Below, piece by piece: positions 24,649 through 44,688 of a stretch of DNA of 64,000 nt; positions within the stretch are counted from its first letter, which is position 1, and each line of letters begins with the position of its first letter. Made by a program: the position numbers and the translations under genes. The stretch is from the NCBI GenBank assembly GCA_963848295.1, contig CAWKDB010000002.1, positions 288,001-352,000 on the forward strand. Reading direction: 5' to 3'. Under the pieces are notes generated by a model that ran no database searches, had not been told where the DNA came from, and saw nothing but the letters and a program-made list of their open reading frames with translations. The stretch comes from an uncultured delta proteobacterium (lineage in GTDB: Bacteria > Myxococcota_A > Polyangia > Haliangiales > Haliangiaceae).

Positions 24649-25484
24649 GTGCGACTCTCGATAGCCGACTTTTTTACGCTGCCGAGTCAGAGCGTGAAGC
24701 TCGCCTCGCTCGCGGACGAGGTCGGCTTTGCGCGCTACTGGGTCGGTGAACATCACACCCCGACATCAGTGCGCCAATCCGTTGCTGCTTGCCAGCGTGC
24801 TGGCCGGGATGACGGAGACGATCCGGATCGGCACCGGGGCGATGTTACTGGGGTTGCGCGGTCCGCGACGGCGCTCGCAGAGGATGCGCGGCTCGTGAGC
24901 CAGCTATATGGCGACCGGCTCGATCTCGGGGTGACGAGCGGATGGAGCCGACGCGCTTGCCCGCGACATGCCAGAGCTCGCGAGCTGCTGACGCCGGATC
25001 GCGATCCGCGCTCGCCGCGTTGCCGTACATCGAGGACGCACCGGCACTATGGCTGATGGCGATCAGACGTGCGGAAGCGGCTACGCTCGCGGCGAAGCTG
25101 GGCTCGGCCTTTGCGCATCGTTTCATCACGGCGGAACACGAGAGGGAATTCGCGACCTCGTCGCTCGTTACCGCGACGGGTTCCAGCCCGGCGCCCTCTC
25201 CGAGCCACGCGACAATCGCGATGCTGAGCGGCGTCTGCGGGGTGGACCAACCCGCGCTCGATGCCGCGCGCGGCAGCTACGCCGCGGTCGCAAGCCAGCT
25301 ATCCGGCGGCGCTCGCGCCCGAACAATCTCGTTCGACGGATCGCCACGCGCCGTCGCCGAAACCGCCGCCCGCGAAGGCGAGACCGTCGGCGCCGACGAG
25401 GTGATGCTGCTGTTCCTGCAGACCGGACCCGACGCCGCCGCTAGGCTCGAGCCGGTGCTGGCCGAGATTAACGCGTCAGGTTAG
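24649..25484 (+). CDS. Luciferase-like (LLM class) flavin-dependent oxidoreductase, frameshifted
   Basis: [45 protein letters not shown] across several frames. Confidence 0.8.
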
Positions 25485-25629
25485 GGGCCTGCGGCTCGGG
25501 CTCGTTGCCGCATCTTACCAAGGTCCACAACGCGACGCCGCCGTTGATCTTCTCCAGCTTGTCCTTCGACAACGGCTTGATGACGGTCTTGTTGAGGCGA
25601 AGCCTCTTCGGCGTCGAGGTTTTCTTCAT
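25468..25629 (-). CDS. Putative RiPP (lanthipeptide-like) precursor, 53 aa
   Basis: [53 protein letters not shown]: LxLxKx5L leader motif, double Gly, Thr/Cys core. A LanC-like gene lies on the same strand about 5.5 kb upstream. Confidence 0.75.
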   Translation of the reverse strand: MKKTSTPKRLRLNKTVIKPLSKDKLEKINGGVALWTLVRCGNEPEPQAPNLTR

Positions 25630-25732
25630 GGCGGGATAATCAGCAACTGCCGCGCCAGCAACCGACCGCAAAGGTTTCGCCGGATTAGCTATCGCTGGAA
25701 CTTCACAGTTCGTGTAGGGCACGCGGCCCGGA

Positions 25733-28700
25733 TCACTTGGAGTGCAGCGCCACGATCTCGCGTAGGTCAGGAACCGGCGCCGATGGGGTCCAGATCGTGG
25801 TCCCGTTGAAGTTTCGGAATACCACGTATCTCGAATTGGGCCCGATACCTACCAACGTCGCGTCATCTGCGATCTCCAGGGCATGGAAGGTATCCAGATC
25901 CCATACCCGAGCGGACGAATCGACCGAGGCGGTGACCAACAGCCCGCCCGCAATGAACCCCGCCGAAGACACCATGTTGGTATGACCCTCGAGCACGCTG
26001 ACTCGCCGCAAGCTCGCCGCGTCCCACACCGGCAACGACACCGCCCCGATGCCGATGAGGAAGCGGCCGTCGGGCGAAAGTATGATCCCGCCGAGATCGG
26101 CGGCGTCGGTGTTACCGATAGGCGCGCCATCTGCGGCGGACCATGCCCGGAGACGCTGATCGCTGGTGAGCGCGAACACGCGGCCGGCGTGCGCGTCGAC
26201 GGCAACGTCCATGGCGACCGCGCCTTCGCCGCTCAAGACCAGCGGCGCCGCGTCCGCGCCAAGGCCTTGCAGCACTACCGCTGCCCTTGAGTCGGTCGTC
26301 CTCGCGAACACGCGATCGGCCGTGACGAAGCCAAGCCGGACGATGCCGGCGCGCAGGCGCGGCAGCGCCCGCGGTCTCGCGCCGTTACCCGCCGAGAGAT
26401 CCGTGACCGACCAGGTGCCGTCGTCGCCGCCGATCACCACGCGTTCGCGCTCGCCGAATGCGACCGCGGCCACGCTCGCCGCGCTCGGGATCGTCGCGAT
26501 CAGCTGACAGGTCGCCGCGTTCCAGACGCGCGCCTCGCGCTCCGCGATCCCGGCGACGACGATCCGATTCCCGCCCGGCTCCCACGCGACGCGGGTCAGG
26601 ATAGCCCCGTTACCGGCCAGGCGGCATGGCGGCGACCCGGGCGCGCCCAGGTCGTGGAGCTCGAGCGAACCGTCGGCCGTTCCGAACGCGACACGATCGG
26701 TCCCCACCGCGATTACGCCCTCGCGCTCCGCGGGGATCTCCCGGTAGTGCGACGCCTTCGCGAGGTTCCACTCGACCACGCGGTGATCCCACGACGCGGT
26801 GGCGAGCGTGCGCCCATCCGGCGAGAACTTCATGTGTGCGATCCGATCCGTGTGCCCGTTGAGCTCGCCGGTACTCAGGCCAGAGGGCACCGACCACAGC
26901 CGGACACCGCCGTCGACGCTCGCGCTCGCGAGCGTGTCGTCTCGAGGCGAAAAGGCCTCTGCCCAGATCCCGGCATGGTGCGCCTGGAGTGTCGCGATCG
27001 GCTTGTTGGTGGCAACGTCCCAGAGCCAAACCGCGTTGTCGTCGCCGCCCGTCGCGAAGTGCTTGCCGTCATGGCTGAACACCACGACGTTGATCGTCTT
27101 GCCTTCGTGGGCGGGGTAGCGCGCGACCACGCGGCCCTCGCTCGAGACGAGCACGACCTCGCCGCTCTCGTCGGCGAACGCAACCCGATCGCCGCTCGGA
27201 CTCGCCGCTGCGACCTGGAGGTTCGATCCGATCTCGACGCGCGCGAGCTTGGCGAACGTGTGCGCATCCCACCACGTCACGACGCCCTCGGCTTGCCAGG
27301 TCACGATGCATTGGCCGCTGGCACAGAACGCCCCACCCGCGACGCCGTGGTCAACCAGCTTGGCCGCCAGCGCGCCGTCCCCGACGTTCCACACTCCGAC
27401 CCCCCGTCCGCTGGCGAGGAGCTGCGAGCCGTCCGCGCTGAACGCGAGGTCGTAGACGCGGGTGCCGGCGCCGGTGTCGATCGCGGCGACCGGCTGTTCG
27501 CTGGCGAGCGACCACACGTCGACGCGATGGTCGAGCTCGCCGCTCGCGAGCAGCTGGCCGTTGGGACTGTACGCTAGCGCGTACGTGGTTGACCCGGTCT
27601 TGAGCGACCGGATCGGTGCGTTGGTCGCGGTATTCCATTCGATCACCGCGCCGTCGTTCCCCGCCGTCGCTAGGCGCGCGCCGTCCGGGCTGAACGCGAC
27701 CGCGAACACCTTGTCCGAGTGCGCGGTCAGCACCGCGTCTTCGGCCGCGTGGTCCGCAGCGCCTCCTCGATCATGAACCTGCACCGCGGGCCCGGTGTCG
27801 CCCATGCTGGTACGCCATGGCGAGTGGCTCGAGCGCCTTGGACTTTTCGCCTTGAAGCATCAGCAGCCGACCGCGGTCGACGGTTGCGTCCAGCAACAGC
27901 TGCTGCGCCGCTCTGCTCGGAGCGTCGGGTCGCGCGATTGGCTACGACAGGCCGATGACGAACCGATGCAGCGAGCAGCGCGATGGCGGCGAGAGCGATT
28001 CGGATGCGTCGCCCGCGCGCGGATTCGGCGACGCTGGCCGCACCGAACTCGGCCTCCGCCGTCGTGACCGCCGACACGTTGCGCTTGTGCCAGAGCTGAT
28101 ACTCGGCGAGCGCGTCGCCGCGCCAGAAAGGCCCCGAGGCCGGTCCGCGATCGGCCCACTGCTTCGCGCCGATGCGCAGCTGGGCGTGAAACGTGAGCCT
28201 CGGCATCCTCGCGGCGCCATTCGGCGAGTCGAGGCCATGCCGACACGAGGGCCTCGTGGATGATCTCGACCGTGCCATCGCCGCGTTCGCTCTCCGCGGA
28301 GATGACGAGCCGCGACGAAATCAAGCGCTCGATCACCCTCCGACCTTCGGCCCCACCGCCGAGGAGCTGTTCTAACTCGTCACGTAGCAGTACCGCGCGC
28401 GTACCCTCGAACGTAACGAGATGGCGGAACATGGTCCGCACGACGGTTCGCTCTGACGTGGAAAGCGCCTCGACCGTCTCGTCCGCATGACGCGCCAAGG
28501 CGCCGGCAACCCCGCCGATCGCTTCATAGGCCTTGCGCGGTAACTGGCGAAAGTGCCGATCGCGTAGCTCCCACAAGCGCGAAGCCGCGAACGAGATCAG
28601 CGCCACAGCCGCGGGTGTGTCCGCGGCCTCGGCGACCATCCGCTCGGGCAGCGAGGGGTCGTCGAACTCGTAGCCAAGGCGGCGAGCCGGCTCGACGATG

Positions 28701-31046
28701 ACGCGCGAAAGTGCCTCCGCGTTCATGGGCCCGAGCAGATGCAGGCCACGAGCGAGCATCGCGTCAAAGCCCGGCAGCTGCTGGGCGCGAATCAAGAAGT
28801 CGTCCCGCAATGTGATGATCACGCGGAGCTTGCGGCCGGCGTCGCTGCCGAGCGCGAGCAACACTTGCGCGAACCGCTGGCGTTCGTCGTCGGCGCAGCC
28901 GAGTGTGAACAGCTCCTCGAACTGGTCCACGACAACGATGAGCCCGTCCTGGTCAGCCTCCTGCCGACGCGCGACGTCTCCCGCCAGGTCCGCAGGAGCA
29001 AGGTCGACGGACTCGGACAATCCGAGCTGCGCTAGCAACTGACGCAGCGGGGTGCGTCCGGGGCGTGTGGTGACCGAGTGCCATCCGGTCATCGCGGGAA
29101 CGACGCCGGCATTGACGAACGAGCTCTTGCCGACGCCCGATGGCCCGACAACGGCGACGAACGGCTCGAGGACAAGCCTGTTCACGAGGTGCTCGGTCTC
29201 GCGCTCGCGGCCGAGAAACAGCGCGGTGTCGCTCGGAATGTACGCCAACAAGCCGCGATACGGGCTCGCGTCGTCGACGACCGATGGATCCGACGGCGCG
29301 GGCGCGAACAACTGGGTGCCGAACCAATCCCACAGCTCGCTGTCGCGGTGCTCGAACCCATACTGCGGCACCACGAGCCGCGCCGCCGCTCCCTTCGGTC
29401 CGGCCAGCATGAAGAGATGCTCCGCGTGGCCGGGCACGGCGACGTGGACCTGGATCAGCGGCCATAGCGACAACAACGGCACACCCGTCGCATCGACGAT
29501 GACCGGACGGCCGTCCGGAACGCTGCGTTGCAGCGCGACGGATTCGACGCGGTCCACTGCGTGCACCCATCCAGGATTCAGCGCGGTCTCCGTGGCCGAC
29601 GGCGAGCTGGTAGTCGAGCAAGAACGCCAACGACCGAAGTAGCGCGGTGATGATGGGCAACTCGCGTGCGATCGCGATCGTCGCAGCGGCCTCCGATGTA
29701 TCGGTGAGCGCTTCCACGAGCGAGCCCTCGACCACCGCGGCAAACGCGTCGCTTTGGTGAATGAGAAGCGCGATTTCAGGAACCGGATACGCGTCCGGCA
29801 GGGTCGCGAACGGCTGCGTCAGTTGCCGCGCGAGTGAAATCCATCCCGCCGACGACAGACCATGGCGGCGCAGGTCGCGCAATAACTCTTGCGCTCGTGG
29901 CGAGTCCGCCTCGCCGCCGGAGCCCACGCGCGTTCGACAGGCGACGGCCAGGATCCCGACGAACCAGCAGGCGACGTGCGCGATCCCGCGCAGCGCCTCT
30001 CTTGCCTGGTGCGCGTTCTTCGCGGCGTCGTACGCCGTGACCGCATCCGCGAGCGGTCGCGGCGCACAAGTCAGGAACGCCTGCCGGATACCCTCCTCGA
30101 TCTGCGGCAGATCCGCGGTCTGCGTGCCGATGCCCGCGGCAACGCGAAACGCTTCCGCGAGCTCGAGCACATTGCCATAGCGGGCGTGAGCGGTCCTTGC
30201 GGTTGCCCGGCGGAGAACGATATCGAGGTCCGGGGAGAACCCATCACCGAGTGCCGGGATGGTCGATCGCGCATGGGCCCGCGCGATCTCCATCATGGTC
30301 TTGCCGGTAAACGCCAAACGACCGGTGAGCGTCTCGAACACGAGCGCCCCGATCGCGTATTGATCCGCGGCCGGTCCCGCGCTCGCCGGATCGACCCATA
30401 GCTCCGGCGCCATGTACGGCGGTGATCCGACGATCGTACCGCGCTGAGTCGTCGTGCTCGCTGGGCTATCCGGAAGCTCGTCGGAGCCTCGCTCGACCGC
30501 GGGGTGATCGTCGCCGATCGCTCGCGCGACTCCGAAATCGAGGAGTTTCGGGAGCAGACGTCCCGCGCGCGAGATCACCATCACGTTGTCGGGCTTGATG
30601 TCGCGGTGGATGATCCCTTGCTCGTGCGCCGTCTGGACGACCTCGCAGATGCGATCGAGCAACGGGATGAACCGCTCGAGGGGCATCGGCCCCTGCGCTT
30701 CCACGACGGCGCGCAGCGACGCGCCACGCACTAACTCCATCGCGATCCAGAACACGCCGTCGGGCTCGGCGCCGAAATCGTAGATGTGGGCCGCATAAGG
30801 ATGGTCGAATCGCGTCGCGAGCTTGGCCTCGCGTAGAAACCGCTGGACCCGCGTCTCGTCGAGACTGCCTTCGCGGAGAACCTTCACGATCGCTTCGCGC
30901 CCCAGCCCCGGCTGTTCGGCGAGATAGACGTCGCCGAATCCACCCGCGCCGACTTGTTCGCGCAACACGAAGCCGCCCAACGTTCGCGTCGTCAAGGCGC
31001 CCGGATGCCCGGCTCCTAGTCCCCCGGTCAACGCGCCGGTTGCCAC
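25733..31046 (-). CDS. Ser/Thr kinase - STAND NTPase (nSTAND1-like) - TM - WD40 repeat protein, about 1770 aa, split by frameshifts
   Basis: Kinase GAGGFGDV/HRDIKPDN/DFG/YMAPE; SPYRGL; Walker A GPSGVGKSS; Walker B VVDQFEELF; IIHEAL..W; multiple WD40 units (AFSPDG.LAT, GHTDRI). Confidence 0.88.
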
Positions 31047-31074
31047 GTCGTCACGATACCACTCGCTGAATCAC

Positions 31075-32199
31075 TCAGAGCCCGCCAGGGAGCAGCAACT
31101 CGTTCCATCTCGGCTCTACGGGCTCGAGGCCCGCGATCAAGGCGAGGCCGACGCCGACCGCACCATCCCAGAAATCGAGTGGATCCGCGCTGTCGAGCCG
31201 CGAGTCGAGAGCGCGCTCGAGCCAGCGTCGCGCGCAGACGGCTTGTTGTTCAAGCCCGTCGCGCTGATACACCCGGTTGGACAGATGCCCGAGCCCGGCG
31301 GCCCCGTGACACATTCCCGCGTCCTCGACGCCAGCCTCGTCGGTACCGAGCGCCATCCAGCTATCGTTGATCTCGGCGATCTGATCGGGCGGCAGGGCAG
31401 CCGTGAGGGCCGCGGCTATCCCTGGCCGTCCGTAGCACCACGCCTCTCGGACTCCGTGCCGTCGCGTTGCGTCGACCCATAGCGGAAACGACCCGTCGGA
31501 GTTGCGCCACGATAGCAACCACCGGGTCGCGGCATCGCGCAGCGGCACCGCGCCGTCGGGAACGTCAGGGCGCGCCGAGATCCGCGTCAGTAATGCGATC
31601 ACGGCGGGTACGCCGTGTGCGACGCCGCAGTTGTACATCCCCTGGGGCCACTCGGCGGCTACCGGCGCAGGTAGCAGTGCAGGAGACGTGTGCCAGGTCG
31701 CGCCTCGCTCGGTGAGGCGCGCGCGAGCCTTCAAGTGATCGACGATCCGTGAGAGTCCAGGCGCGACCGCCGCCGTGTCACCGCGAGCGAGCAAATAGCC
31801 GCCGAATCCAACGAGACCCGCGTGAAAGTCATAAGGCACAGCATCGTCCGGCGGACCGGCGAGCACGGCCAACACGGCGTCGTCGGTCGCGGTAAGCACC
31901 TCATCGACATCGTCGGCTACCTGCCCTGCAACCCAGGCGGCAAACGCTAGCCCGCGCGTGAATGACAGCGAGTCCGGGCCACGCGTGAAGACGGCTTCAA
32001 GCCATTTGGCGAAGCGTTCGTACGCTTCGGCAGCGTGGCGGTCGGTCTCGGGAAGGAGCTCGAGTGGAGCCGCGTGGCTCCAGAATAGCGCGCCGTCGGC
32101 GGGGGGGCCATCCCCGCGGGCAACGTCGGTAGCGATCTCGACCAGCCGAGCGCGAGCTCGGTCCGCGAGCTCGCCCACGAGGATCGGTTGCCAGTCCAT
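31075..32199 (-). CDS. Lanthionine synthetase C-like (LanC) cyclase
   Basis: YDFHAGLVG, NCGVAHG (catalytic His), AWCYG and GMCHG (Zn ligands Cys/Cys/His), FWDGAVGVGLAL. Confidence 0.9.
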   Translation of the reverse strand: MDWQPILVGELADRARARLVEIATDVARGDGPPADGALFWSHAAPLELLPETDRHAAEAYERFAKWLEAVFTRGPDSLSFTRGLAFAAWVAGQVADDVDEVLTATDDAVLAVLAGPPDDAVPYDFHAGLVGFGGYLLARGDTAAVAPGLSRIVDHLKARARLTERGATWHTSPALLPAPVAAEWPQGMYNCGVAHGVPAVIALLTRISARPDVPDGAVPLRDAATRWLLSWRNSDGSFPLWVDATRRHGVREAWCYGRPGIAAALTAALPPDQIAEINDSWMALGTDEAGVEDAGMCHGAAGLGHLSNRVYQRDGLEQQAVCARRWLERALDSRLDSADPLDFWDGAVGVGLALIAGLEPVEPRWNELLLPGGL

Positions 32200-34800: not shown

Positions 34801-35922
34801 TCAGAGCTTCCAGCGCACGGGCGAGACGTTGTGGATGAACCCCTGCTGCGCCCACAGCTCGCCCGAGGTCAAGTTCATCGCGATCGCGCCGCAGGTCGCC
34901 GCGCCGTGCGGGTCCTCCGGCGTCGACATGTTCGTGTTGATGCTGCGCGGCCAGCCGTCTTCGGAGCCGAGCCGGCGCCACGCATCGGCGAGATCCGCGA
35001 TCGGCGCGCGCGCGAGGTCGACCTCGAGCCAGTGCATGCGATCGTGCGTCGTGCTCGCGGGCGGGACCTTCGAGCGTGCGGCGACCTCGCGATCGAAGCA
35101 GTGGTTCGTGTGGCAATAGACCTTGAGGTCGCCGTTGAACACCTGCTTGCGCCGCGTTCCCGACGCCTCGATCGCGAACGCCGCGTTGCGGCCGCCGACG
35201 AAGTAGTGATGGCCCGAGCCGATCGGCGCGTGGGCGATCTCGTCGCGCGCTCCGGTCACCGTACGTTCGGCGAGCGCGCGGCGCACGACCGCGGGCCACA
35301 CCACGCCGAGCGTCGCGTCGGTCGAGTACAGGTTGTTGATCGCGATCGCCACGCGCGCGGCATTCATCCCGGCCATCCCGAGGCAGCCGGTCACGGTGAG
35401 CAGGCGCATCGCCGGCGCCTTCGCGGTCTCCGGCACGCCGAGCGTCATGACGTACGGGATCGCGGTCGCGTGCATGTCCCAGGTCTGCGCGAGGATGCGT
35501 CCGCTCGGCGTCTCGGCCCAGATGACACTGCATCCGTCGCCGCCAAGGGAATCCGAGCCCGAGCCCGAGCCCGAGCCCGATGCGTCGTCGTGCGTCTTCG
35601 CCCGCTTCCACTTCTTCTGATCCGGATCCAGATCCCGCAGATCGGTGTAGTGATTCGCGACGACGATCTCTTCGGGCGTCACCGCCGCACCCTCCGCGAT
35701 CCCGCACAGCTCGGCGTGCAAGTCGCGGTCGTAGCTCTCCAGCACCGGCAGGTGCGCCTTCGCCGCCGACAGCACCGCGGCAGCGTCTCCGAACCCGCCG
35801 ACCTTCGTGCACAGGTACACGCGGATCGCGGCGAGCGCCTTGATCTCGCCGCGGAAGCTCTCGCCGTGCAGCTGGCCCCACTCGCGTGGTGACTTGCCGG
35901 CTGGAAGATCGAGCGTCCTCAA
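34801..35922 (-). CDS. C45-family Ntn hydrolase / acyltransferase (isopenicillin-N acyltransferase-like)
   Basis: G.LHGE N-terminus, autocleavage site DG-CS, AQTWD, GMN, HTNH; TTG start overlapping the upstream stop. Confidence 0.85.
35553..35580 (-). repeat. (CCGAGC)n hexamer tract encoding a GSGSGS linker just before the C45 catalytic Cys
   Basis: About 4.7 units, read directly. Confidence 0.85.
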
Positions 35923-38900
35923 CGTGCGCCGCCTGCGCCGCCGATCGCCTCCGCGGCCTCGGCGATCCGATCGAGCGCGGGAATCACGCCGAGCTTGCCC
36001 GCGGGGAACCGCCGCACCGCGATGCCGCGATCGCCGAGCGCATCCGCGACTTCGTCGGCGCGGTCGCCGGCATCGATCACGCGATACGCGCCGAGCCCGG
36101 CGAACGGCACGCCGAGCCCGGTCAACGCGCGATCGAGCGCCGCGGCGCCGCCCGCGATGTCGAGCCGCCGCGCCGCTCGCGCGTGATGATGCTGCCGGAC
36201 GAGCGACAGCTCGTCGCCATCCCACGTCGACACGAGCGTCAGCGGACCCGGGACGTACCACTTCGCCGAGGTGTGCAGGTAGCCGGTCTGCGCCCCGCCC
36301 CACCACGTCAGCACGTCGGGGACGAGGCCCACGGCGCTCGACAAGAACGGGCCCTTGCCGGAGCGATACGTGTGGGTCGTGGTCTCGACCGCGATCAGCG
36401 GCAGCTCGAGCTCGGTGCGCAGCGCGCCGAGCTCGGCGATGAAGTCGGCGGGTAGCACGTGCCCGGTGCGCTCTTGCACGAGCTCGTACACGAAGCCGAG
36501 CACCCCCGCCGGGCCGCCCGCCTTGCCGACCGCGACGCGCAGCGCTGCGATCGTCGCTTGCGTGCCTGCGATCGCCGGATGCGGCACGCGCGGCCACGCG
36601 AAGTGACCCGGACCACCGCGATGCACCGCCGGATCCGAAAGCGATCGCGTGCTGCCGACGGTGTGCCCGTAGTAGCCACCGTCGAGCCCGATCGCGACGG
36701 CCGCGGTCTTGCGCGTACTGCGGACGAGCCGGAGCGCCTTGTCGATGCTCTCGTCGCGGCTCGACGTCAGGTACATGTGCGGCAGCTCGGGCACGAGCGC
36801 CGACAGCCACTCGATCGCGCGCACCGCGGCGGGTGTCGTGTAGTTCATCAGCGTGAGCTTGTTGACCGCCGGCCCATACAGCGAGCCATCGCGCTCGAGG
36901 CTGCGCAGGCTCGCCGGTCCGTCGGCGAACGGCTTGGTCAGCCCTTGCGCGAGATCGATCGCCGCCGCCGGCTCGCTGCGAGCGACGCGCCGCTTGCGGA
37001 CGTCCTCGGCGACCGCGAGATCCGGTGCGAGTGGTCCGAGCGGAATCCGGTAGTAGATGGCCTGACCCTCCGGGTCCTCGTACTGGCCGGTCAGGATCGA
37101 AACCACGTGCGCGCCGAACACGCGGTTGAGGTGCGTCATCTCCGCGGTGCGGCCGACGCGATTGCGCCCGCTGACGTAGCCATAGCGCGGCGAGCCATCG
37201 GGCCGCTTCGCCGCGGCCGCGTCACGCAACTGGTGCTCCTTGAGCTTGCGGCCGATGCCCGATCCCTGGTGGCTCGGCGCGACCGTGATCGACACCGAGT
37301 ACATCGTGTTGTGCTTGCCGAGCATCGGATCGTCGTCGCATCCTTCGACATCGTCGCTCTGCTCGAGCGGGCCGCCGATCGCGAACGCGACGAGCTGCGG
37401 GGTGCCGGACGGCCCGGGCGCCTCCGCGATCACGAGCGAGCCATCGACCCCTTCGATCGCCGCGCGGATCTCGGCCGGCGGCGTGCGGCGCGCCGGCTCG
37501 TAGACCTGGTACTCGATGTCGAGGATCGCCGGTAAAAAGCTCATCGCCTCCGAGTGCGGGACGCGGCGATACGTGACGTTCGGCGGCGGCGCCGGCGCGG
37601 CGCCGGGCGCCGGCGGGTTCTCCCAGGACGGCGGCTTCTGACCTTCGTGCGCGTCGAGCCACGACAGCGACCGGCGGATCGTCTCGAACAACAGCTCGAT
37701 CTCGCGCGCGAGATACGAATCGCTCAGCCGATAGCGCGCGGTCCGCGAGCCGGCCGCAAACACGACCGCGCCGCGCCAGAACCTTTGGCCGATGAACGCA
37801 TCGAGTTGCGCCGGGGTGGGCAGATCGAACGCGAACGCATAGCCGGCGCCGCGCGGATGCTGGACGAGATGCGGATACGCTCGCGCGAGCTGCGCGAGCC
37901 GCGGCGCGACGAGCTTCTCGAGCCGCTCGGCGTTGTGCCCGGTCGACACCATGTCGGCGTGGATCCGGCCGCGCACCAGCGACGCGGCATGAACACTCGC
38001 CGGCTCCGGATCGGCGAACCGCGACATCACGACGCCGACCTGCGCGCGCTTCGCGAACGTCACCGCGTCGGGATAGTCTTGCTGGCCGCGCGCGGAGAGC
38101 AGCCGGAACTTCGAGTGCCACGCGAACGGCCCGCCGAGCCCGAAGCCGACCTGGACCTCGTCGAACAACAGCGAGGTCTTGTGGTAGCGCGTGAGCAGGC
38201 GCAGCGCGCGAAAGAACCGCTCGGTCGCGTAGCGATCGCCGCCTTCGGATTGCATCGGCTCGACGATCGTCGCGAAGTAGGCGCCGGTCGCGAGCGCGGC
38301 ATCGACCGCGGCGAGCGAGGCGACCTCGGCGGCGAGCAACGCGTCGTCCTTCGCGTCGCCGAATCGCTCGCGGAGATCGGCGATGTCGCCGGTGGCGGCG
38401 GCGGCGTAGTAACCGCTCGGCGCGGACGGCTCGTCGTCAGACGGCGTGTTCCACACCGGGAACGGCGCGAACGTCGCCTCGTAGCCCTCGAGCTCGAACG
38501 CGGCGCGCTTGCTCGGCGAGTGGGTCGCGTGCACCGCGAGCAGCGTGCGGCCGTGGAAGCTGCCGTCGAACGCGAGCATCTTCGTCGCATCCGGCCGTTC
38601 GCAGTTGATCCGGGCGAGCGCGAGCGCCTTCTCGTTGGCCTCGGCGCCGGACGCGACGAACGTGACGTGCGGCAAGCCCGGCACGAGCTGGCGCAGCGCG
38701 TTCGCGTAGTCGATCTCGGCCCAGGTCTCGCCCGCGGCGGTATCGGGGTTCGCGACGAGCGTGTCGCCGAACTCGCCCTCGGTGAACGCGCGCACGACCG
38801 GATCCTCGGCGAAGCCACCGACCACCGTCGCGGTCTGGCTCATCCCGTCGAGCACCGCGAGCGGCTCGCGATCGATCGACACCATCCACGGTCCGGCCGA

Positions 38901-40571
38901 GCGCAGGTGATCGAACACCGGCGGCTTCTTCTCTTTCGGCACGCGATCGCCGGCATAGAGCCGCGCGAGGTACGCCTCGGACTCCGGCAGCTTGCCGCCG
39001 GCCGGGCGATGCAGCGCCATCGGTCGCGGCAGCTCGACGAGCATGCGCGCCGCGTCGGCCGCTTCTTCGCCCGCGTGCTGCGCCTCAAGCCGATCGAGAT
39101 CGACGGGCGGCAGCAACGCGGCGAGCTGCGGGTGCGGCGTCACCGCGCCGAGCACGTTCTCGAGCACCGCGACCGGCGCGACGACGTTGCGATGGGCCCA
39201 CGCCCCTGCCGGGCGATGGTTGCCGCTCTTGCCGAGGCCGCCGAACGGCAGCCGCGGGCTCGCGAGGTTCGTCGAGCGGTTGCGATTCAAGATGCCGCTG
39301 TTCGTCCGCGCGAAGAACTGCTCGAACCGAGGCGTCGACGCGGTGAACACCGCGTTCGCGAACCCGTACGGCGACGCATCGATCACCGCGATCGCTTCGT
39401 CGTCGGTGTCGAACACCTCGACGCACAGATCCGGGCCGAACACCTCGACATCGGTGTAGCCGGCGACGTGGTGGACGCCATCGGGCATGCGATGCAACGA
39501 CGGCGAGTGGTAATAGCCGCCCGGCAACTTGCTGCCGGCGACGATCGCATCGGCGCCCGCCTTCTTCGCGATCTCGAGTGCCGCTTGCAGCTTGTGCAGC
39601 GCGCCGATCGTCGCGACCGGGCCGGCGAACACCGACGGATCCTCGGGATCGCCGAACTTCAAGCCGCGCACGACCTTCGCCAGCGCATCGATGAACCGAT
39701 CGGCGATCTTGCGATGCACGAGCACGCGATCGGTGCCGGTGCAGCGCTGGCCCGCGGACAAGTAGCCGCCGACCGCGACCTCGTGCACCGCCTGGCGCAG
39801 CGCGCAGTCGTCGAGCACGACGCACATGTTCTTGCCGCCCATCTCGAGCGCGACCAGCAGCTCGGGGCGATCGAGCGAGGCTTCGAGGATGCGGCGGCCG
39901 ACCGGCCAGCTGCCGGTGAAGCACAACCCGCGGAGCAGCGGATGAGCGACCATCGCCGCGCCGACCTCGCCCGCGCCGACGACGACGTTGAGCACGCCGG
40001 GCGGCAGCTTCGCGGCGAGCGCCGCCTCAGCGTAGCGCTGGCCGCACAGCGGCGAGATGTCCGACGGCTTCATCACGACCGTGTTCCCGGCGTAGAGCGC
40101 GGGGATCACGTGCGCGTGACACAGGTGGAGCGGGAAGTTGAACGGCCCGATCACGCCGACGACGCCGAGCGCCTGGTAGCGCAACACCTCGCCGGGCGCG
40201 ACCGGACCTGGCTTCAAGTCGCTCGCGATCGCCGCCTTGACCAGGTCGAACCGGTTGAGCAGCGTCTGGATCTCGGTCTTGGCTTCCGCGCGGATCTTGC
40301 CGGTCTCGAGCACGATCGCATCCGCGAGCTCGGTCGCGCGACTCGCGATCGCGGCTTTGAATCGCTCGAGGTGAGCGAACCGTTCGGCGCTGGACAGCGC
40401 GGCCCATGCCGGTTGCGCCGCCGCGGCCGCCGCCGCCGCATCGCTCACCGCGGAGACCGTGTAGCCGGTCTCGAACACCACCGCGCCATCGGCCGCGGGG
40501 TTCTTCGACACGAGCGCGGTTCCAGAGGGCGGGACGAACCCCCCACCGATGAAGTTGCCCTTGGCCTGCAC
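35919..40571 (-). CDS. Four-domain fusion: aldehyde dehydrogenase + class III aminotransferase + GNAT + degenerate aminotransferase
   Basis: ALDH GPFNFP/FTGS/LEMGGKN/GQRCT/EVFGP; aminotransferase [48 protein letters not shown]; single uninterrupted ORF. Confidence 0.9.
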
Positions 40572-40735
40572 GCGGCTACTAGACCACAAAAGCAAGAGAA
40601 CTCAACGATATCAGCAGCCTCGGCGCCTACTAATTCCCACGCGCACCGATTCCCGAACGAGGTTGCTGAGTTGCGTTGGGAACTGCCGGTCGGACGTCAG
40701 ATCGCCATGGTGTGATCGACGCAAGATGCTCTGCC

Positions 40736-41075: not shown

Positions 41076-41621
41076 TCACTGGTCCGCCGGTTTCGCGTCC
41101 TCAGCCGGCCTTGGCACCGTTGGGGCTTTCACAAGGTGAATACCCCGGCCCGTGATCGTGGCGCACACGCGATCGGGACCTTTGCCCTCGGTGACGACGT
41201 GCGTAAGCAGGATCGTATCCACCGTGCTTGGAAGACCGCCGTCCGCCGCGGTGGGAAGACCGCTGAGGTCGAGTCGAGAAATCGCGTCGGTCGCGGCCGC
41301 GGCTATTGCTTGGCGCGTAAGCTCGTCCGCCGATAGTTTCGCGAGGTCAGTCATACCCACCCAGTAGGTGGTTGGTGTCAGGCGATTGACGCACGCCTTC
41401 CCGACGCCTGAGTCGAGAAGCTCGAAGTCAAGAGCGCCAACCATCGCGGGCTGATTGCCGGGCTGCATGCTGACGAGCAAACTCGACCCGTCGATCGCCG
41501 CTCGCTCAGGCGCTGCGCAGCCGACGAACGCCAGACAGACAACGGTCCCCTTCACCGTCCGAGCTTCACCCTCGTTGGCACCTAAGGCAACAGCTGGCGC
41601 ACGCAGCTTGACCGCGGTCAT
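41076..41621 (-). CDS. Putative lipoprotein (start uncertain)
   Basis: Lipobox-like LAFVGC; lower GC3 than neighbours. Confidence 0.55.
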   Translation of the reverse strand: MTAVKLRAPAVALGANEGEARTVKGTVVCLAFVGCAAPERAAIDGSSLLVSMQPGNQPAMVGALDFELLDSGVGKACVNRLTPTTYWVGMTDLAKLSADELTRQAIAAAATDAISRLDLSGLPTAADGGLPSTVDTILLTHVVTEGKGPDRVCATITGRGIHLVKAPTVPRPAEDAKPADQ

Positions 41622-41919
41622 GGCGGGCGCGACGCTTGGCGCCTACGCGCCCGACGGGTATCGCGATAGGGATGTTGACGAGTACAACATTCGAATGGCC
41701 CTTCGTGCCCTGCTCGAAGGTAACGCTGGTGCGTTCCTCCCACTGTCAGGGAGTTCCGTGGGCTCGCGGTCGAGCCTGTCAGGAACGTCCGTGGATCAAG
41801 ACGTAAGGGACGTATCAGGTCTGGACCCATGGTGTGCGAGGACGCGCCCGTTGCAGCCAATCATGAACTTACGTATATCTGCTGAATCAATTGAATCGTC
41901 GGTTGCTACGTTCCGAGGC

Positions 41920-42669
41920 GTGAGGTCGTCTTCGCGTAATCGCCAGCTCGAGCTTCCGCGGCTCGATAAGAACCAGCAGCGTCGCGGCGGGAAGCGACGA
42001 GGCGCCGGCCACAAGCCGAAGGGCTTCCGCGCCGGCGTCACGCACGCGAAGCGCGCCGAGCTCGATCCAAGCAAGCCCCTCCACATCACGCTGCGCGTGG
42101 TCGCGGCGGTCGCCGCCTTGCGGTCGGAGAAGGCCTATCGTGCGATTCGCCGCGCGCTGGTCGTCACAGCGTTCAACCAACTCGGGCTGCGGATCTGCCA
42201 CTTCAGCGTCCAGCGGAACCACGTCCACTTGATCTGCGAGGCCGACAACAACGCCGGGCTCACGCGCGGCATGCAGAGCTTCAAGATCTCTACGGCAAAG
42301 CAGCTCAATCGCGAGCTGCGGCGTCGTGGCACCGTGTTCGCCGACCGCTACCATGTCGAGATCCTCGCCACCCCGACGCAAGCGAGCCACGCGATCAGCT
42401 ACGTGCTCAACAACTGGCGCAAGCACGGCGAGCACCGCAACACCGCCGGGCTCTACCGCGGCCGCATCGATCCGTTTTCGAGCGGCGCACAGTTCTACGG
42501 CTGGTCCATGCCGCGCTGGCGCACCAGCCTCTATCCAAGAGGGTACGAACGTGCCGCGATCGCGGCGCCCCTCACATGGCTGCTTGGGGTCGGCTACTTG
42601 CGCGGCAGGCCGATCAGCGTCTTCTCGGTGCCCTCCACGCGAGCCACGCGATTGGTGTCGAAGAGTTGA
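41920..42669 (+). mobile_element. Y1 HUH transposase, IS200/REP-associated tyrosine transposase (RAYT)-like
   Basis: LHITLR, HUH motif NHVHL, FADRYH, catalytic helix SYVLNN; no TnpB downstream. Confidence 0.85.
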
Positions 42670-42843: not shown

Positions 42844-44688
42844 ATGGCCTCGCTGGTGTTCCTTGCAGGTCCGATCGCCGGCCGGCGGTACAGACTCGGC
42901 GAAGGCGAGTACGTGATCGGACGGCGCTCCGACTGCCAGATCTTCGTACCGGACATGCGGGTGTCGCGCCAGCACGCGCGGCTGTGGCGCGACGGCGAGG
43001 GCTGGACGCTCGAGGACCTCGGCTCGAATAACGGCACGTTCATCAACGGCCAGAAGCTGAAGAAGGCGACCGCGATCCGCAACGACGACGAGATCACGAT
43101 CGCGAACAACAAGATCCGGGTCGAGTCGCAGGACTCGTCGGCTGAAGGCCGGTTCCCCGAGGGCAACGTCACGATCGTCGACGTCACCGGGCAATCGCTG
43201 ATCCGGTCGCGCGAGGAGTCCGGCCTGGTCAAGCTGCCGATGGTGTCCTCGGGCTTGCAGAGCCTCGCCGATCAGAAAGCGGTGCGGTTGATCGAGCGCA
43301 AGCTCGATGCGCTGACCCAGATCTTGTCGGCGACCGCGGCGTCTGGTTCCGCGGAGGAGCTGCTGACCAAGCTGGTCGACGCGCTGCTCGAGCTCTATCC
43401 GCAGGCCGACGATGTCGGCGTGCTCGTCGAGGACGAGCGCACCGGCGAGCTTCGGGTTCAAGTCCAGCGCCACCGCCGCGCCCAGACCGGGCCCGACTCC
43501 GGCGGCGACGTCTCGCCGTACGGCGGCGACTTGCGCGTACCGGGCACGATCATCCAACACGTGGTCAGCGATGGCCGCGGCGTGCTGCTCGGCGAAAACG
43601 CCGACGACGAAGAGCCGATCGGCACGCGCATGGGCGCACCGATCATCTACGGCGGCGCGCACTACGGCGTGGTCTACGTCGAGAGCATGACCCAGTCGTT
43701 CCGACAGGAAGACGTCGATCTGCTCCAGACCATCGCGAACCAAGCCGGGTTGGCGATCCATGCCACGCGCGTCGCGGTGCAGCTCGCCCGGCGAGAGCAG
43801 CTCGATCGCGATCTGCGCGTCGCTCGCCAGATCCAGCGCAGCTTGTTGCCGGCGAACGTGCCGCAGGTCGTGGGCCTCGACTTCGCGGTCCACTACGAGC
43901 CCGCGTATCAGATCGGCGGCGACTTCTACGACTTCATCTGGCACGACCCGTCGCACTTGGGTCTCGCGGTCGGCGATGTCGCCGGCAAAGCGATCAGCGC
44001 GGCGCTGTACATGGCGCGGTTGACCTCGGAGCTGCGGTCGCGCGCCGCGATCGCGCGGACGCCCGCGCGACTGCTCCGTCGCGTCAACAGCGAGATCGCG
44101 TCGCTCGGCGACGACGGCATGTTCGCGACGCTCGTCTACCTGATCTACGACCTCGAGAACCGCAGCCTCGTGTTCACGAACGCCGGCCACTGCGTGCCGC
44201 TGTTGCGCCGCGGCGACCGCGTGTTCCCGCTCCAAGCCGAGCGCGCGAGCACCCCGCCGCTCGGGGTGACCGCCGAGCTCGAAGCGGGTGAAGCGCGCGT
44301 CCAGCTCCACTCCGGCGACATGCTGATCATCGTGTCGGATGGCATCATCGAAGCGCGCGATATTCACGGCAAAGAGTACGGGCTGACGCGGCTCTCGCGG
44401 CGGATCCGGACCGCGCGCGGCGCGACCGAAGACGTCATCAAGGCGATCCTGGCGGACATCGACTCGCACTGCGGCGATCAAGCCCAAGGCGACGACATGA
44501 CGATCGTCGCGATGGCGATCGACCAGCGCCGCGCCAAGCGCAAGACCACGACCCTGCCCGGCGTCGTCCCGGCCGAGACCTCCCGACCCGCGCGGCTGTC
44601 GACCGAAGGCGGCACGCCGAACGACACCTCGCGGATGGGCCACGAAGGAATTCACGGGGTTCCACCCGGCCCCGACGAACAAGACTGA
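42844..44688 (+). CDS. FHA - GAF - SpoIIE/PP2C phosphatase signalling protein
   Basis: IGR, VSRQHA, DLGSNNGTFING (FHA); GGDFYD, GDVAGK, NAGH, SDG, GDDMT (PP2C). Confidence 0.93.
   Translation: MASLVFLAGPIAGRRYRLGEGEYVIGRRSDCQIFVPDMRVSRQHARLWRDGEGWTLEDLGSNNGTFINGQKLKKATAIRNDDEITIANNKIRVESQDSSAEGRFPEGNVTIVDVTGQSLIRSREESGLVKLPMVSSGLQSLADQKAVRLIERKLDALTQILSATAASGSAEELLTKLVDALLELYPQADDVGVLVEDERTGELRVQVQRHRRAQTGPDSGGDVSPYGGDLRVPGTIIQHVVSDGRGVLLGENADDEEPIGTRMGAPIIYGGAHYGVVYVESMTQSFRQEDVDLLQTIANQAGLAIHATRVAVQLARREQLDRDLRVARQIQRSLLPANVPQVVGLDFAVHYEPAYQIGGDFYDFIWHDPSHLGLAVGDVAGKAISAALYMARLTSELRSRAAIARTPARLLRRVNSEIASLGDDGMFATLVYLIYDLENRSLVFTNAGHCVPLLRRGDRVFPLQAERASTPPLGVTAELEAGEARVQLHSGDMLIIVSDGIIEARDIHGKEYGLTRLSRRIRTARGATEDVIKAILADIDSHCGDQAQGDDMTIVAMAIDQRRAKRKTTTLPGVVPAETSRPARLSTEGGTPNDTSRMGHEGIHGVPPGPDEQD

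Follow-up and report, generated by a model that had tools for sequence, protein, structure and literature searches.

The 64,000-nt stretch analysed here (C2:288001-352000, hereafter the window), from the 7.78-Mb, 11-contig and 85% complete genome of an uncultured myxobacterium, carries at positions 24649..32199 a cassette of four genes. They code for a LanC-type lanthionine cyclase, a Ser/Thr kinase joined to an nSTAND1 NTPase and a WD40 region, a 53-amino acid (aa) peptide with a double-glycine (GG) leader and a luciferase-like (LLM) oxidoreductase. Sequence comparison makes it somewhat probable, in our view, that the cassette is part of a split class I lanthipeptide system, the dehydratase LanB and the C39 protease/exporter acting in trans from a locus ~465 kb away and the neighbouring kinase being the receptor or a regulator of the peptide. 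A preliminary description of the window had named all four genes and their arrangement, and this anatomy is borne out by our reading of open reading frames (ORFs) and domains, but the kinase gene is not a single open frame in this assembly and the LLM gene is garbled. The same description had proposed three options, namely a satellite cluster relying on a distant LanB in trans, a non-canonical route in which the kinase activates the core Thr, and a peptide-signal module with an NLR-like receptor. Our results support the first and, on comparative evidence, the third, but not the second.

A lanthipeptide precursor and cyclase apart from their probable dehydratase

The 53-aa LanA-type precursor is encoded on the minus strand at 25468..25629, as described beforehand, and its ORF begins 103 nt past the stop codon of the WD40 frame. 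The leader, MKKTSTPKRLRLNKTVIKPLSKDKLEKINGG, ends in GG at residues 30-31 and is followed by a 22-aa core with one Cys and three Thr, the combination of leader and core expected of a class I precursor. Residues 1-31 match model NF038153 (lant_leader_L1a) at 25.8 bits against a cutoff of 22, and they carry the motif LxLxKx5L before the GG. Such leaders are described, in the consulted sections of PMC7268733, for class I precursors with C39 exporters. The leader type is common to at least 10 LanAs located beside LanB/LanC in related genomes, often in several copies (loci L049, L050, L053, L055, L056, L036, L032, L030 and L035). The window peptide was the sole match to a strict genome-wide leader pattern; a looser pattern gave many chance hits, from which candidates were accepted by eye on leader shape. 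Within the core, a methyllanthionine ring between Thr5 and Cys9 is possible.

The cyclase gene (31075..32199, minus strand) is intact, encodes 374 aa and matches PF05147 at 80.6 bits. Its ATG sits 2 nt past the scoB stop, and ORF coordinates and domain match agree with the earlier placement of an intact LanC-like gene 28 nt from the kinase ORF, which starts at 31046. Aligned to the solved LanC-like structures 8byk_A and 3t33_A and to NisC (2g02_A), the protein keeps the GVAHG, AWCYG and MCHG motifs and retains the catalytic acid/base His and the Cys-Cys-His zinc ligands; it is a stand-alone LanC, as in class I systems. In a maximum-likelihood tree of 31 LanCs it falls, on a branch of 1.28, inside a clade of 21 sequences with 100/99 support, where LanCs adjacent to LanB and LanCs adjacent to a kinase are intermixed (7 label changes in each case, not better than with labels shuffled). 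No close orthologue was found among the 138 family genomes searched, the best identity being 44%.

Domain searches of the 64-kb window detected no LanB, LanM, HopA1 lyase or C39 domain, the last being sought as the mark of a protease/exporter, in agreement with the absence of a LanB, LanM, lyase and transporter noted before. The locus lacks, in other words, the LanB and the C39 protease/exporter that class I systems hold in the same cluster. A whole-genome family search returned a single LanB match (516 bits, C2:786242-788206) and a single C39 match (C2:792339-792719), both on the same contig as the window and ~465 kb from the cassette. The LanB gene (C2:785177-788341) is full-length, its N and C domains scoring 514 and 208 bits, and the C39-ABC transporter gene (C2:792231-794480) lies beside it; Pfam reads the neighbourhood as LanB, OEP, GAF-HlyD and C39-ABC in a row. 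No precursor was found beside this LanB and none of the three LanC hits of the genome is located there, making this locus the exact complement of the window locus. The lyase search called for by the preliminary description gave no genome match to HopA1 (PF17914); the LanM dehydratase domain (DUF4135) also drew no genome match, a weak negative because the control genomes were equally silent. The proposal of a cluster served by a distant LanB is supported by this co-location of one LanB and one C39 without LanC or precursor, by the NF038153 leader match and by the mixing of the LanC clade with LanB-adjacent LanCs.

Related loci show the same parts in several arrangements. In genome G019, LanB, LanC, HlyD, PCAT, HlyD, OEP, an FHA-domain sigma-54 activator (enhancer-binding protein, EBP), a kinase-nSTAND-WD40 gene, LanA, aat and LLM form one locus. 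In G106 the kinase gene is divergent from LanC, which is followed by LanB, LLM and OEP; in G007 it is divergent from LanB and LanC; and in G105 the order is PCAT, OEP, kinase gene, LanA and LanC. A LanB at related loci had been named beforehand as grounds for doubting a LanB-less cassette, and it is present in G019, G106 and G007. Consequently the term holds for the locus and not for the pathway, the genome's own LanB being the one ~465 kb away. Where LanC/kinase loci of relatives lack LanB (five genomes), LanB sits on a different contig in four cases, and 14 of 25 LanC-anchored loci show no LanB in the fetched DNA.

The LanB orthologue in the close relative G125 (92% identical; L174/L151, G125:C152) is divergently adjacent to a kinase-nSTAND1 gene; in the genome studied here the upstream neighbour of LanB is instead OEP. 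A second LanA, 55 aa long with an NF038153 score of 31.4 bits and the core LAPAMTKASICAEQCCTTGTSVYGC, lies directly upstream of a second LanC on contig C1 (G000:C1:20760-22012; L039 9752-11013), where no LanB is found. AcrB, OEP, a kinase-TPR gene and a gene for an ECF-type (extracytoplasmic function) sigma factor are nearby. As this LanA/LanC pair is also without LanB, the single LanB and exporter would serve both loci.

The kinase gene and its peptide form a recurrent pair

The gene between LanC and the peptide (25733..31046, minus strand) spans ~1,770 codons, broken by five single-base indels, and would encode a Ser/Thr kinase, a helical linker, an nSTAND1 NTPase, one transmembrane (TM) segment and a two-propeller WD40 region. 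Kinase domain and linker (29545..31046, minus strand) match PF00069 at 126.6 bits and APH at 18.8 bits, the latter below its cutoff, which identifies a kinase of Pkinase type. The nSTAND1 domain (28196..29542, minus strand) matches PF20703 at 320.5 bits over profile positions 1-356 of 379, and the WD40 region (25733..27805, minus strand), 690 aa in one frame, matches PF00400 at 170 bits with 6 repeats called. The motifs HRDIKPDN and DFG of the kinase and Walker A (GPSGVGKSS) and Walker B (VVVDQFEE) of the NTPase are readable in the ORFs, and a Pfam scan found no lyase domain in the kinase ORF. An NTPase with both Walker motifs, an N-terminal kinase and C-terminal WD40 repeats is the architecture of nSTAND1 proteins. 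The domains of the kinase-STAND-WD40 gene reported earlier are therefore present (Pkinase, nSTAND1 and WD40 matches), while its single open frame is not. Identity to P0001, the closest homologue, is 79% in the kinase part and 73% in the nSTAND part, and the kinase domain is 81% identical to that of G125:C1102.

In total the genome holds 11 nSTAND1 genes in 7.8 Mb, 7 of which are long forms with WD40. Next to six of these 7 is a small ORF whose product has a Lys-rich GG leader and a short core containing at least one Cys; five such ORFs are found 82-170 nt downstream, the sixth being upstream and divergent. A GG-leader peptide was likewise found at 10 of the 17 relatives' loci with enough flank (L141, L143, L144, L146, L154, L155, L148, L149, L052 and L059). 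As a control, the GG-peptide scan gave no credible hit at 79 of 80 nSTAND1 loci, most of them from other phyla, and the exception, L061, is a same-genus contig identical to L148. In 6 of the 25 LanC-anchored loci such a kinase gene is the immediate neighbour of LanC, despite just 11 nSTAND1 genes in the genome. Taken generally, it is the kinase gene, and not LanC, that the peptide accompanies. A peptide encoded next to a membrane sensor kinase is the arrangement of pheromone-type systems, and adjacency and the TM segment described below are both found here.

What else surrounds the pair varies: LanB and LanC, weak LanC-like genes (44-49 bits), TIGR03975 genes, or exporter genes only. At L061/L148 (G013:C414; L061 10539-15891) the kinase gene is accompanied by two Cys-less peptides, GAF-HlyD, PCAT (C39-ABC) and HlyD. 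These peptides belong to a group of Cys-less GG peptides with IPKQ cores (GRPDIPKQPDPGRT, IPKQPDPGNNK and SPFIPKQSNTGG..., at L061/L148 and at ~7970 of L149), whose genes follow those of a kinase subfamily of 52% identity, no modifying enzyme being seen beside them. Two genes for TIGR03975, a radical SAM C-methyltransferase for the maturation of peptides made by ribosomes and modified after translation (RiPPs), score 625 bits (G000:C10:1940773-1942947; L158 4773-6947) and 599 bits (G000:C10:355669-357612; L162 12670-14613). Both are directly beside kinase-nSTAND1-WD40 and GG-peptide pairs, with cores IAVHNAGCAFT and AEGVKHVIIC. At L161 (14304-16860; G000:C2:730303-732859) a weak LanC-like ORF (45.6 bits), which the family search of the whole genome had not picked up, overlaps a 501-aa kinase ORF by 8 nt on the same strand and converges on another GG peptide; the two ORFs may be a fused or split kinase-LanC-like protein. 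A supposed radical SAM neighbour at L160 was rejected, being HemN with a spurious N-terminal extension from the ORF caller.

Predicted topology, promoter and signalling circuit

Three-frame reading of the window gene places a predicted single TM segment, IALAAIALLAASV..., at 27940..27999 (minus strand) after RGRRIRI. One strongly hydrophobic 19-mer (Kyte-Doolittle 1.9-2.6) occurs between nSTAND1 and WD40, after RGRR(I/L)RR, in all 10 of 10 homologues checked. This conserved segment predicts that kinase and STAND domains are cytoplasmic and that the WD40 propellers are a periplasmic sensor. The WD40 region of the window protein is 22-34% identical to those of its paralogs, and WD40 regions among paralogs are 20-46% identical, against 59-65% for the kinase and nSTAND parts. 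The two WD40 pairs of highest similarity (G019-G105 and G005-G003) also have peptide cores of evident relatedness, which makes two cases only.

Upstream of the peptide gene lies a putative sigma-54-type -24/-12 promoter element, TGGCGCGGCAGTTGC (25643..25657, minus strand), the GC of which is 14 nt before the ATG. The pattern GG-N9-TGC, mostly GGCAC...TTGC, starts 23-41 nt before the ATG of 12 of 17 kinase-paired peptide genes, compared with 3.8% of 20,000 random 60-mers (binomial p ~5e-14, a value overstated because the loci are related) and with 2 of 11 LanA genes that do not adjoin such a kinase. Genes for FHA-sigma-54 EBPs stand beside the pair in 6 loci (L059, L051, L057, L146, G019 and the genome's own C11); at L160 an FHA-sigma-54 EBP is on the opposite strand. 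Together, the conserved gene pair, the TM segment placing the WD40 propellers outside the cytoplasm, the sigma-54-type promoters and the FHA-sigma-54 activators favour, by comparison, the earlier option of a peptide signal read by an NLR-like receptor.

We propose the following scheme for the split system. The only LanB of the genome would dehydrate Thr in the core, and LanC would close one methyllanthionine ring, e.g., from Thr5 to Cys9. The C39 transporter would then cut after GG, and the peptide would be exported through HlyD and OEP. Once outside, the mature peptide may reach the periplasmic WD40 propellers of the kinase protein, whereupon STAND oligomerisation would switch on the cytoplasmic kinase. 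A phospho-signal passing through an FHA-domain sigma-54 activator could finally act on the sigma-54-type promoter before the peptide gene and so close a positive feedback loop. Tailoring of the peptide by the LLM enzyme, through reduction or oxidation, is possible.

Several observations weigh against this scheme. Over its last 110 aa the window LanC shares only 51% identity with that of G125, compared with 81% for the kinase, and its branch in the tree is long. The single LanB may serve the C1 LanA/LanC pair instead, and in a genome 85% complete a second LanB or C39 could be unassembled. An adjacent peptide was not found at 7 of the 17 relatives' loci (L150, L153, L156, L157, L055 and two genes at L051, by the same scans) nor at 1 of the 7 own paralogs; the loci counted come from related genomes, hence are not independent, and rest on crude ORF calls. 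The promoter motif is absent from 5 of 17 paired peptide genes, and no FHA-sigma-54 EBP gene was found near the window pair, the nearest tblastn match falling outside the window. Finally, four of the five breaks in the kinase gene may be genuine, as may those in the 5' third of the LLM gene; the kinase gene would then be a pseudogene.

More broadly, we tentatively suggest that Kofleriaceae-type myxobacteria have a new class of peptide-signal receptors. These would consist of a single-pass kinase, an nSTAND1 switch and a periplasmic WD40 region, each with its own GG-leader ligand (plain, lanthipeptide or radical-SAM-methylated), with shared C39 export and FHA-sigma-54 feedback.

Other roles for the kinase

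Pathway-specific regulators are commonly encoded in biosynthetic clusters, and the kinase could control the lanthipeptide genes according to a different external cue, with the peptide as an antibiotic or bacteriocin placed behind it for co-regulation only. Adjacency, the sigma-54-type promoter and the FHA-EBP data fit such a one-way regulator equally well. We nevertheless consider it unlikely, as the pair spans RiPP enzyme classes (LanBC and TIGR03975 radical SAM), and it persists at L061/L148 with an exporter but no modifying enzyme. The WD40 region also diverges far faster than the kinase/STAND part and tracks the peptide cores in the two testable cases, although neither this nor the persistence of the pair is decisive.

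Alternatively, the STAND protein could be an immune or allorecognition sensor of an NLR-like conflict system, with the kinase as effector and the GG peptides as toxins or bacteriocins. In the consulted sections of PMC8195603, nSTAND1 is defined in predicted counter-invader systems with S/T/Y kinase effectors. The several diversified paralogs per genome would suit such a role, as would signs that the block is variable. GC content at third codon positions (GC3) ranges in the block from 0.755 (LanC) to 0.849 (WD40). The flanking sigma gene has 0.892 and scoB 0.933, and the 39 other window ORFs of at least 150 aa average 0.877 (sd 0.05), so the excess of A/T at third positions seen by eye in the preliminary description is confirmed by computation. 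In G125, whose flanks are 88-90% identical at the DNA level and whose sigma protein is 97.5% identical, the DNA past the sigma gene codes for different proteins and an IS3-type transposase. Both the lower GC3 and this changed junction are compatible with a variable block. Strict synteny is traceable in G125 only, in an assembly too broken up to show the edges of a possible island. Against a conflict system stand the sensor repeats, predicted to be extracytoplasmic unlike cytosolic NLR-type sensors, and the neighbours of the pair, which are export, RiPP maturation and FHA-sigma-54 activator genes and not the described effector sets. The GG peptides, moreover, were absent by the same scan at 79 of 80 nSTAND1 loci, and we find this reading improbable.

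Frame breaks in the kinase and LLM genes

The frame changes of the kinase gene were found from GC3 periodicity and three-frame reading and mapped with homologues P0001, P0002, P0003 and P0006; P0001 aligns successively in frames -3, -1, -2 and -3, and the WD40 part of the window gene sits in frame -1. The indels, as read at the junctions, comprise extra bases at ~29543, ~27925 and ~27812 and two missing bases at ~28200, 12 nt apart, in a GGG run and a TTTT run. Contigs of a small public soil-metagenome run, X1, were compared with the window. X1 is identical to the window in 6 of the 8 pieces listed, and the piece covering 29299-29562 lacks exactly one base at 29543, the position of the first break, its deletion giving the frame shift needed on the minus strand. 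X1 is possibly the source sample and hence not independent of the organism, yet it is independent of the consensus. Runs X2 and X3 match just a conserved kinase stretch (30577-30631) and are uninformative on this organism. In G125, LanC is followed after 29 nt by kinase (81%) and nSTAND (74%) in one frame, through the first junction. Among the six other long paralogs of the assembly, three are intact (1,728 to ~1,814 aa) and three carry one frame change each (L161 ~10947, L162 ~8010 and L163 ~8520), which suggests single-base indel errors scattered over the assembly, as would fit its 85% completeness.

The LLM gene (24649..25484, plus strand) starts just after the sigma-70 gene and is heavily garbled in the assembly, switching frame at least 3 times. 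Its first 40 aa match PF00296 at 20.6 bits, under the cutoff of 27.9. The frame stops at 25484, so that the gene converges on the peptide gene and overlaps its 3' end by 17 nt; this part of the preliminary description holds. Over 24903-25174, X1 differs from the window by 11 substitutions and 12 indels, and applying these differences fuses two LLM frames into one ORF that reaches the stop at 25484. The window LLM is 41.5% identical over 53 aa to the G019 LLM and, in another frame, 39% over 38 aa to the G106 LLM, those two being 28% identical to each other. These are the only 2 relatives with an LLM gene near the kinase/peptide pair (PF00296 127 bits in G019; immediately behind LanB in G106). 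In some lanthipeptides, enzymes of the LLM family carry out the reduction of dehydro residues or the oxidation of thioethers, and a tailoring of this peptide by either reaction is possible, if weakly supported.

Read at face value, the breaks would make the kinase and LLM genes pseudogenes and the block the degraded remains of a former LanB cluster. Five breaks in 5.3 kb, the many in the LLM gene, the long LanC branch, the lower GC3 and the LanB in place at related loci would all be in line with decay. We deem it very unlikely. The kinase gene has neither in-frame stops nor deletions in its true frames, just single-base indels, and LanC, the peptide gene and the WD40 frame of 690 aa are all intact. 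Because X1 mends the first break and the LLM frames it covers, G125 reads through and three other paralogs are similarly split, the breaks in both genes most likely reflect errors of the consensus where its quality is locally poor; the read-level check covers the first kinase break and part of the LLM gene.

Proposed dehydration by the kinase

A last route, in which the kinase would phosphorylate core Thr and elimination and LanC cyclisation would follow on the model of a split class III/IV or a class V pathway, might be read from the 28 nt between kinase and LanC genes and the frequency of LanC loci without LanB in fetched DNA (14 of 25), and yet it is scarcely credible, since the paired cores AEGVKHVIIC, IAEQRICHPC and IPKQPDPGNNK with its family hold no Ser or Thr, which argues against the kinase as a general dehydration enzyme, no HopA1 lyase was found in the genome, the kinase protein shows no lyase domain and forms no fusion with LanC, the LanC zinc ligands are kept as in class I enzymes, and complete clusters have LanB beside LanC. 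A class III/IV synthetase (LanKC/LanL) was rejected on the separate kinase and LanC genes, the lack of a lyase domain and the LanC scores of 39.5 bits for NF038150 (cutoff 650) and 18.2 bits for NF038151 (cutoff 575), both full-length models. A class V system was rejected on the absence of PF17914 from the genome, a kinase of Pkinase and not APH type, and the retained zinc ligands.

Other genes of the window

On the minus strand the order runs scoA, scoB, LanC, the kinase-nSTAND1-WD40 gene and the 53-aa peptide ORF. Gene calls throughout come from a crude in-house ORF caller, and none of the conclusions depends on the unpublished genome G010. Roughly 10 kb away from the block lies an ORF (41455-42669) whose product has an IS200-like Y1 transposase domain; it is followed by a gene for an FHA-GAF-SpoIIE (PP2C-type) phosphatase (42844-44688). 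A 1,558-aa ORF at 35919-40595 unites domains of aldehyde dehydrogenase and of class III aminotransferase, and may be a fusion or a join of two genes by the ORF caller.

Relation to known systems and significance

The chemistry is that of the known class I LxLxKx5L/GG type; the unusual point is its division between two loci. The clusters of Bacteroidetes and the pinensin group, as presented in the consulted sections of PMC7268733, have the same GG leader, a separate LanB, a zinc-type LanC, a C39-ABC exporter and a core with Cys and Thr. Compared with the clusters treated there, the host is here a myxobacterium, the two loci are ~465 kb apart, and the precursor lies behind a STAND receptor kinase gene, not beside LanB/LanC. 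Walker et al. set such clusters aside as unclassified, according to the same sections (PMC7268733). Class III/IV (LanKC, LanL) and class V systems also bring together a kinase and a LanC-type cyclase; unlike them, the window locus shows no fusion and no lyase, keeps the LanC zinc ligands and has a kinase of membrane receptor type.

With respect to signalling, nisin and subtilin control their own production through the two-component sensors NisRK and SpaRK. In the reading proposed here the lanthipeptide would similarly act from outside on its own precursor gene through a membrane kinase. Unlike NisRK/SpaRK, that kinase is a Ser/Thr kinase-STAND protein with a predicted periplasmic WD40 region and not a histidine kinase, and its output is likely FHA-sigma-54 activators. 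In the streptococcal ComC/ComD/ComAB and BlpC/BlpH/BlpAB systems, a GG peptide is sensed by a membrane kinase encoded next to it. The likeness extends to the short GG-leader peptide, C39 ABC export, the adjacent kinase and several pairs per genome. The differences are a Gram-negative host with HlyD and OEP, another class of receptor and, for some peptides, RiPP modification. A role of PCATs in the export of Gly-Gly-leader pheromones of streptococci is reported in the consulted part of 10.1101/783472.

The nSTAND1 systems of Kaur et al. 2021 (PMC8195603) share the central nSTAND1 domain, the N-terminal S/T kinase and the C-terminal repeats; their contexts are predicted counter-invader systems, and a TM segment with outside WD40 and a partner GG peptide was not found in the sections consulted. 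No description of the kinase/peptide pairing was found in the open-access full texts searched, subscription journals being outside the scope of that search.

The window locus, which looks like half of a working class I system, would be discarded by cluster finders for which LanB has to lie within a few genes of LanC, and split clusters may hide products in the same way. A STAND receptor kinase paired with an exported peptide under a sigma-54-type promoter offers a model for peptide signals in myxobacteria. These bacteria have many orphan Ser/Thr kinases, and peptides would, if the model is true, be signals for them. A bacterial NLR-like protein would then read an extracellular ligand, linking NLR-like STAND machinery to peptide sensing, and the six orthogonal pairs in this one genome would be private channels of communication or kin recognition.

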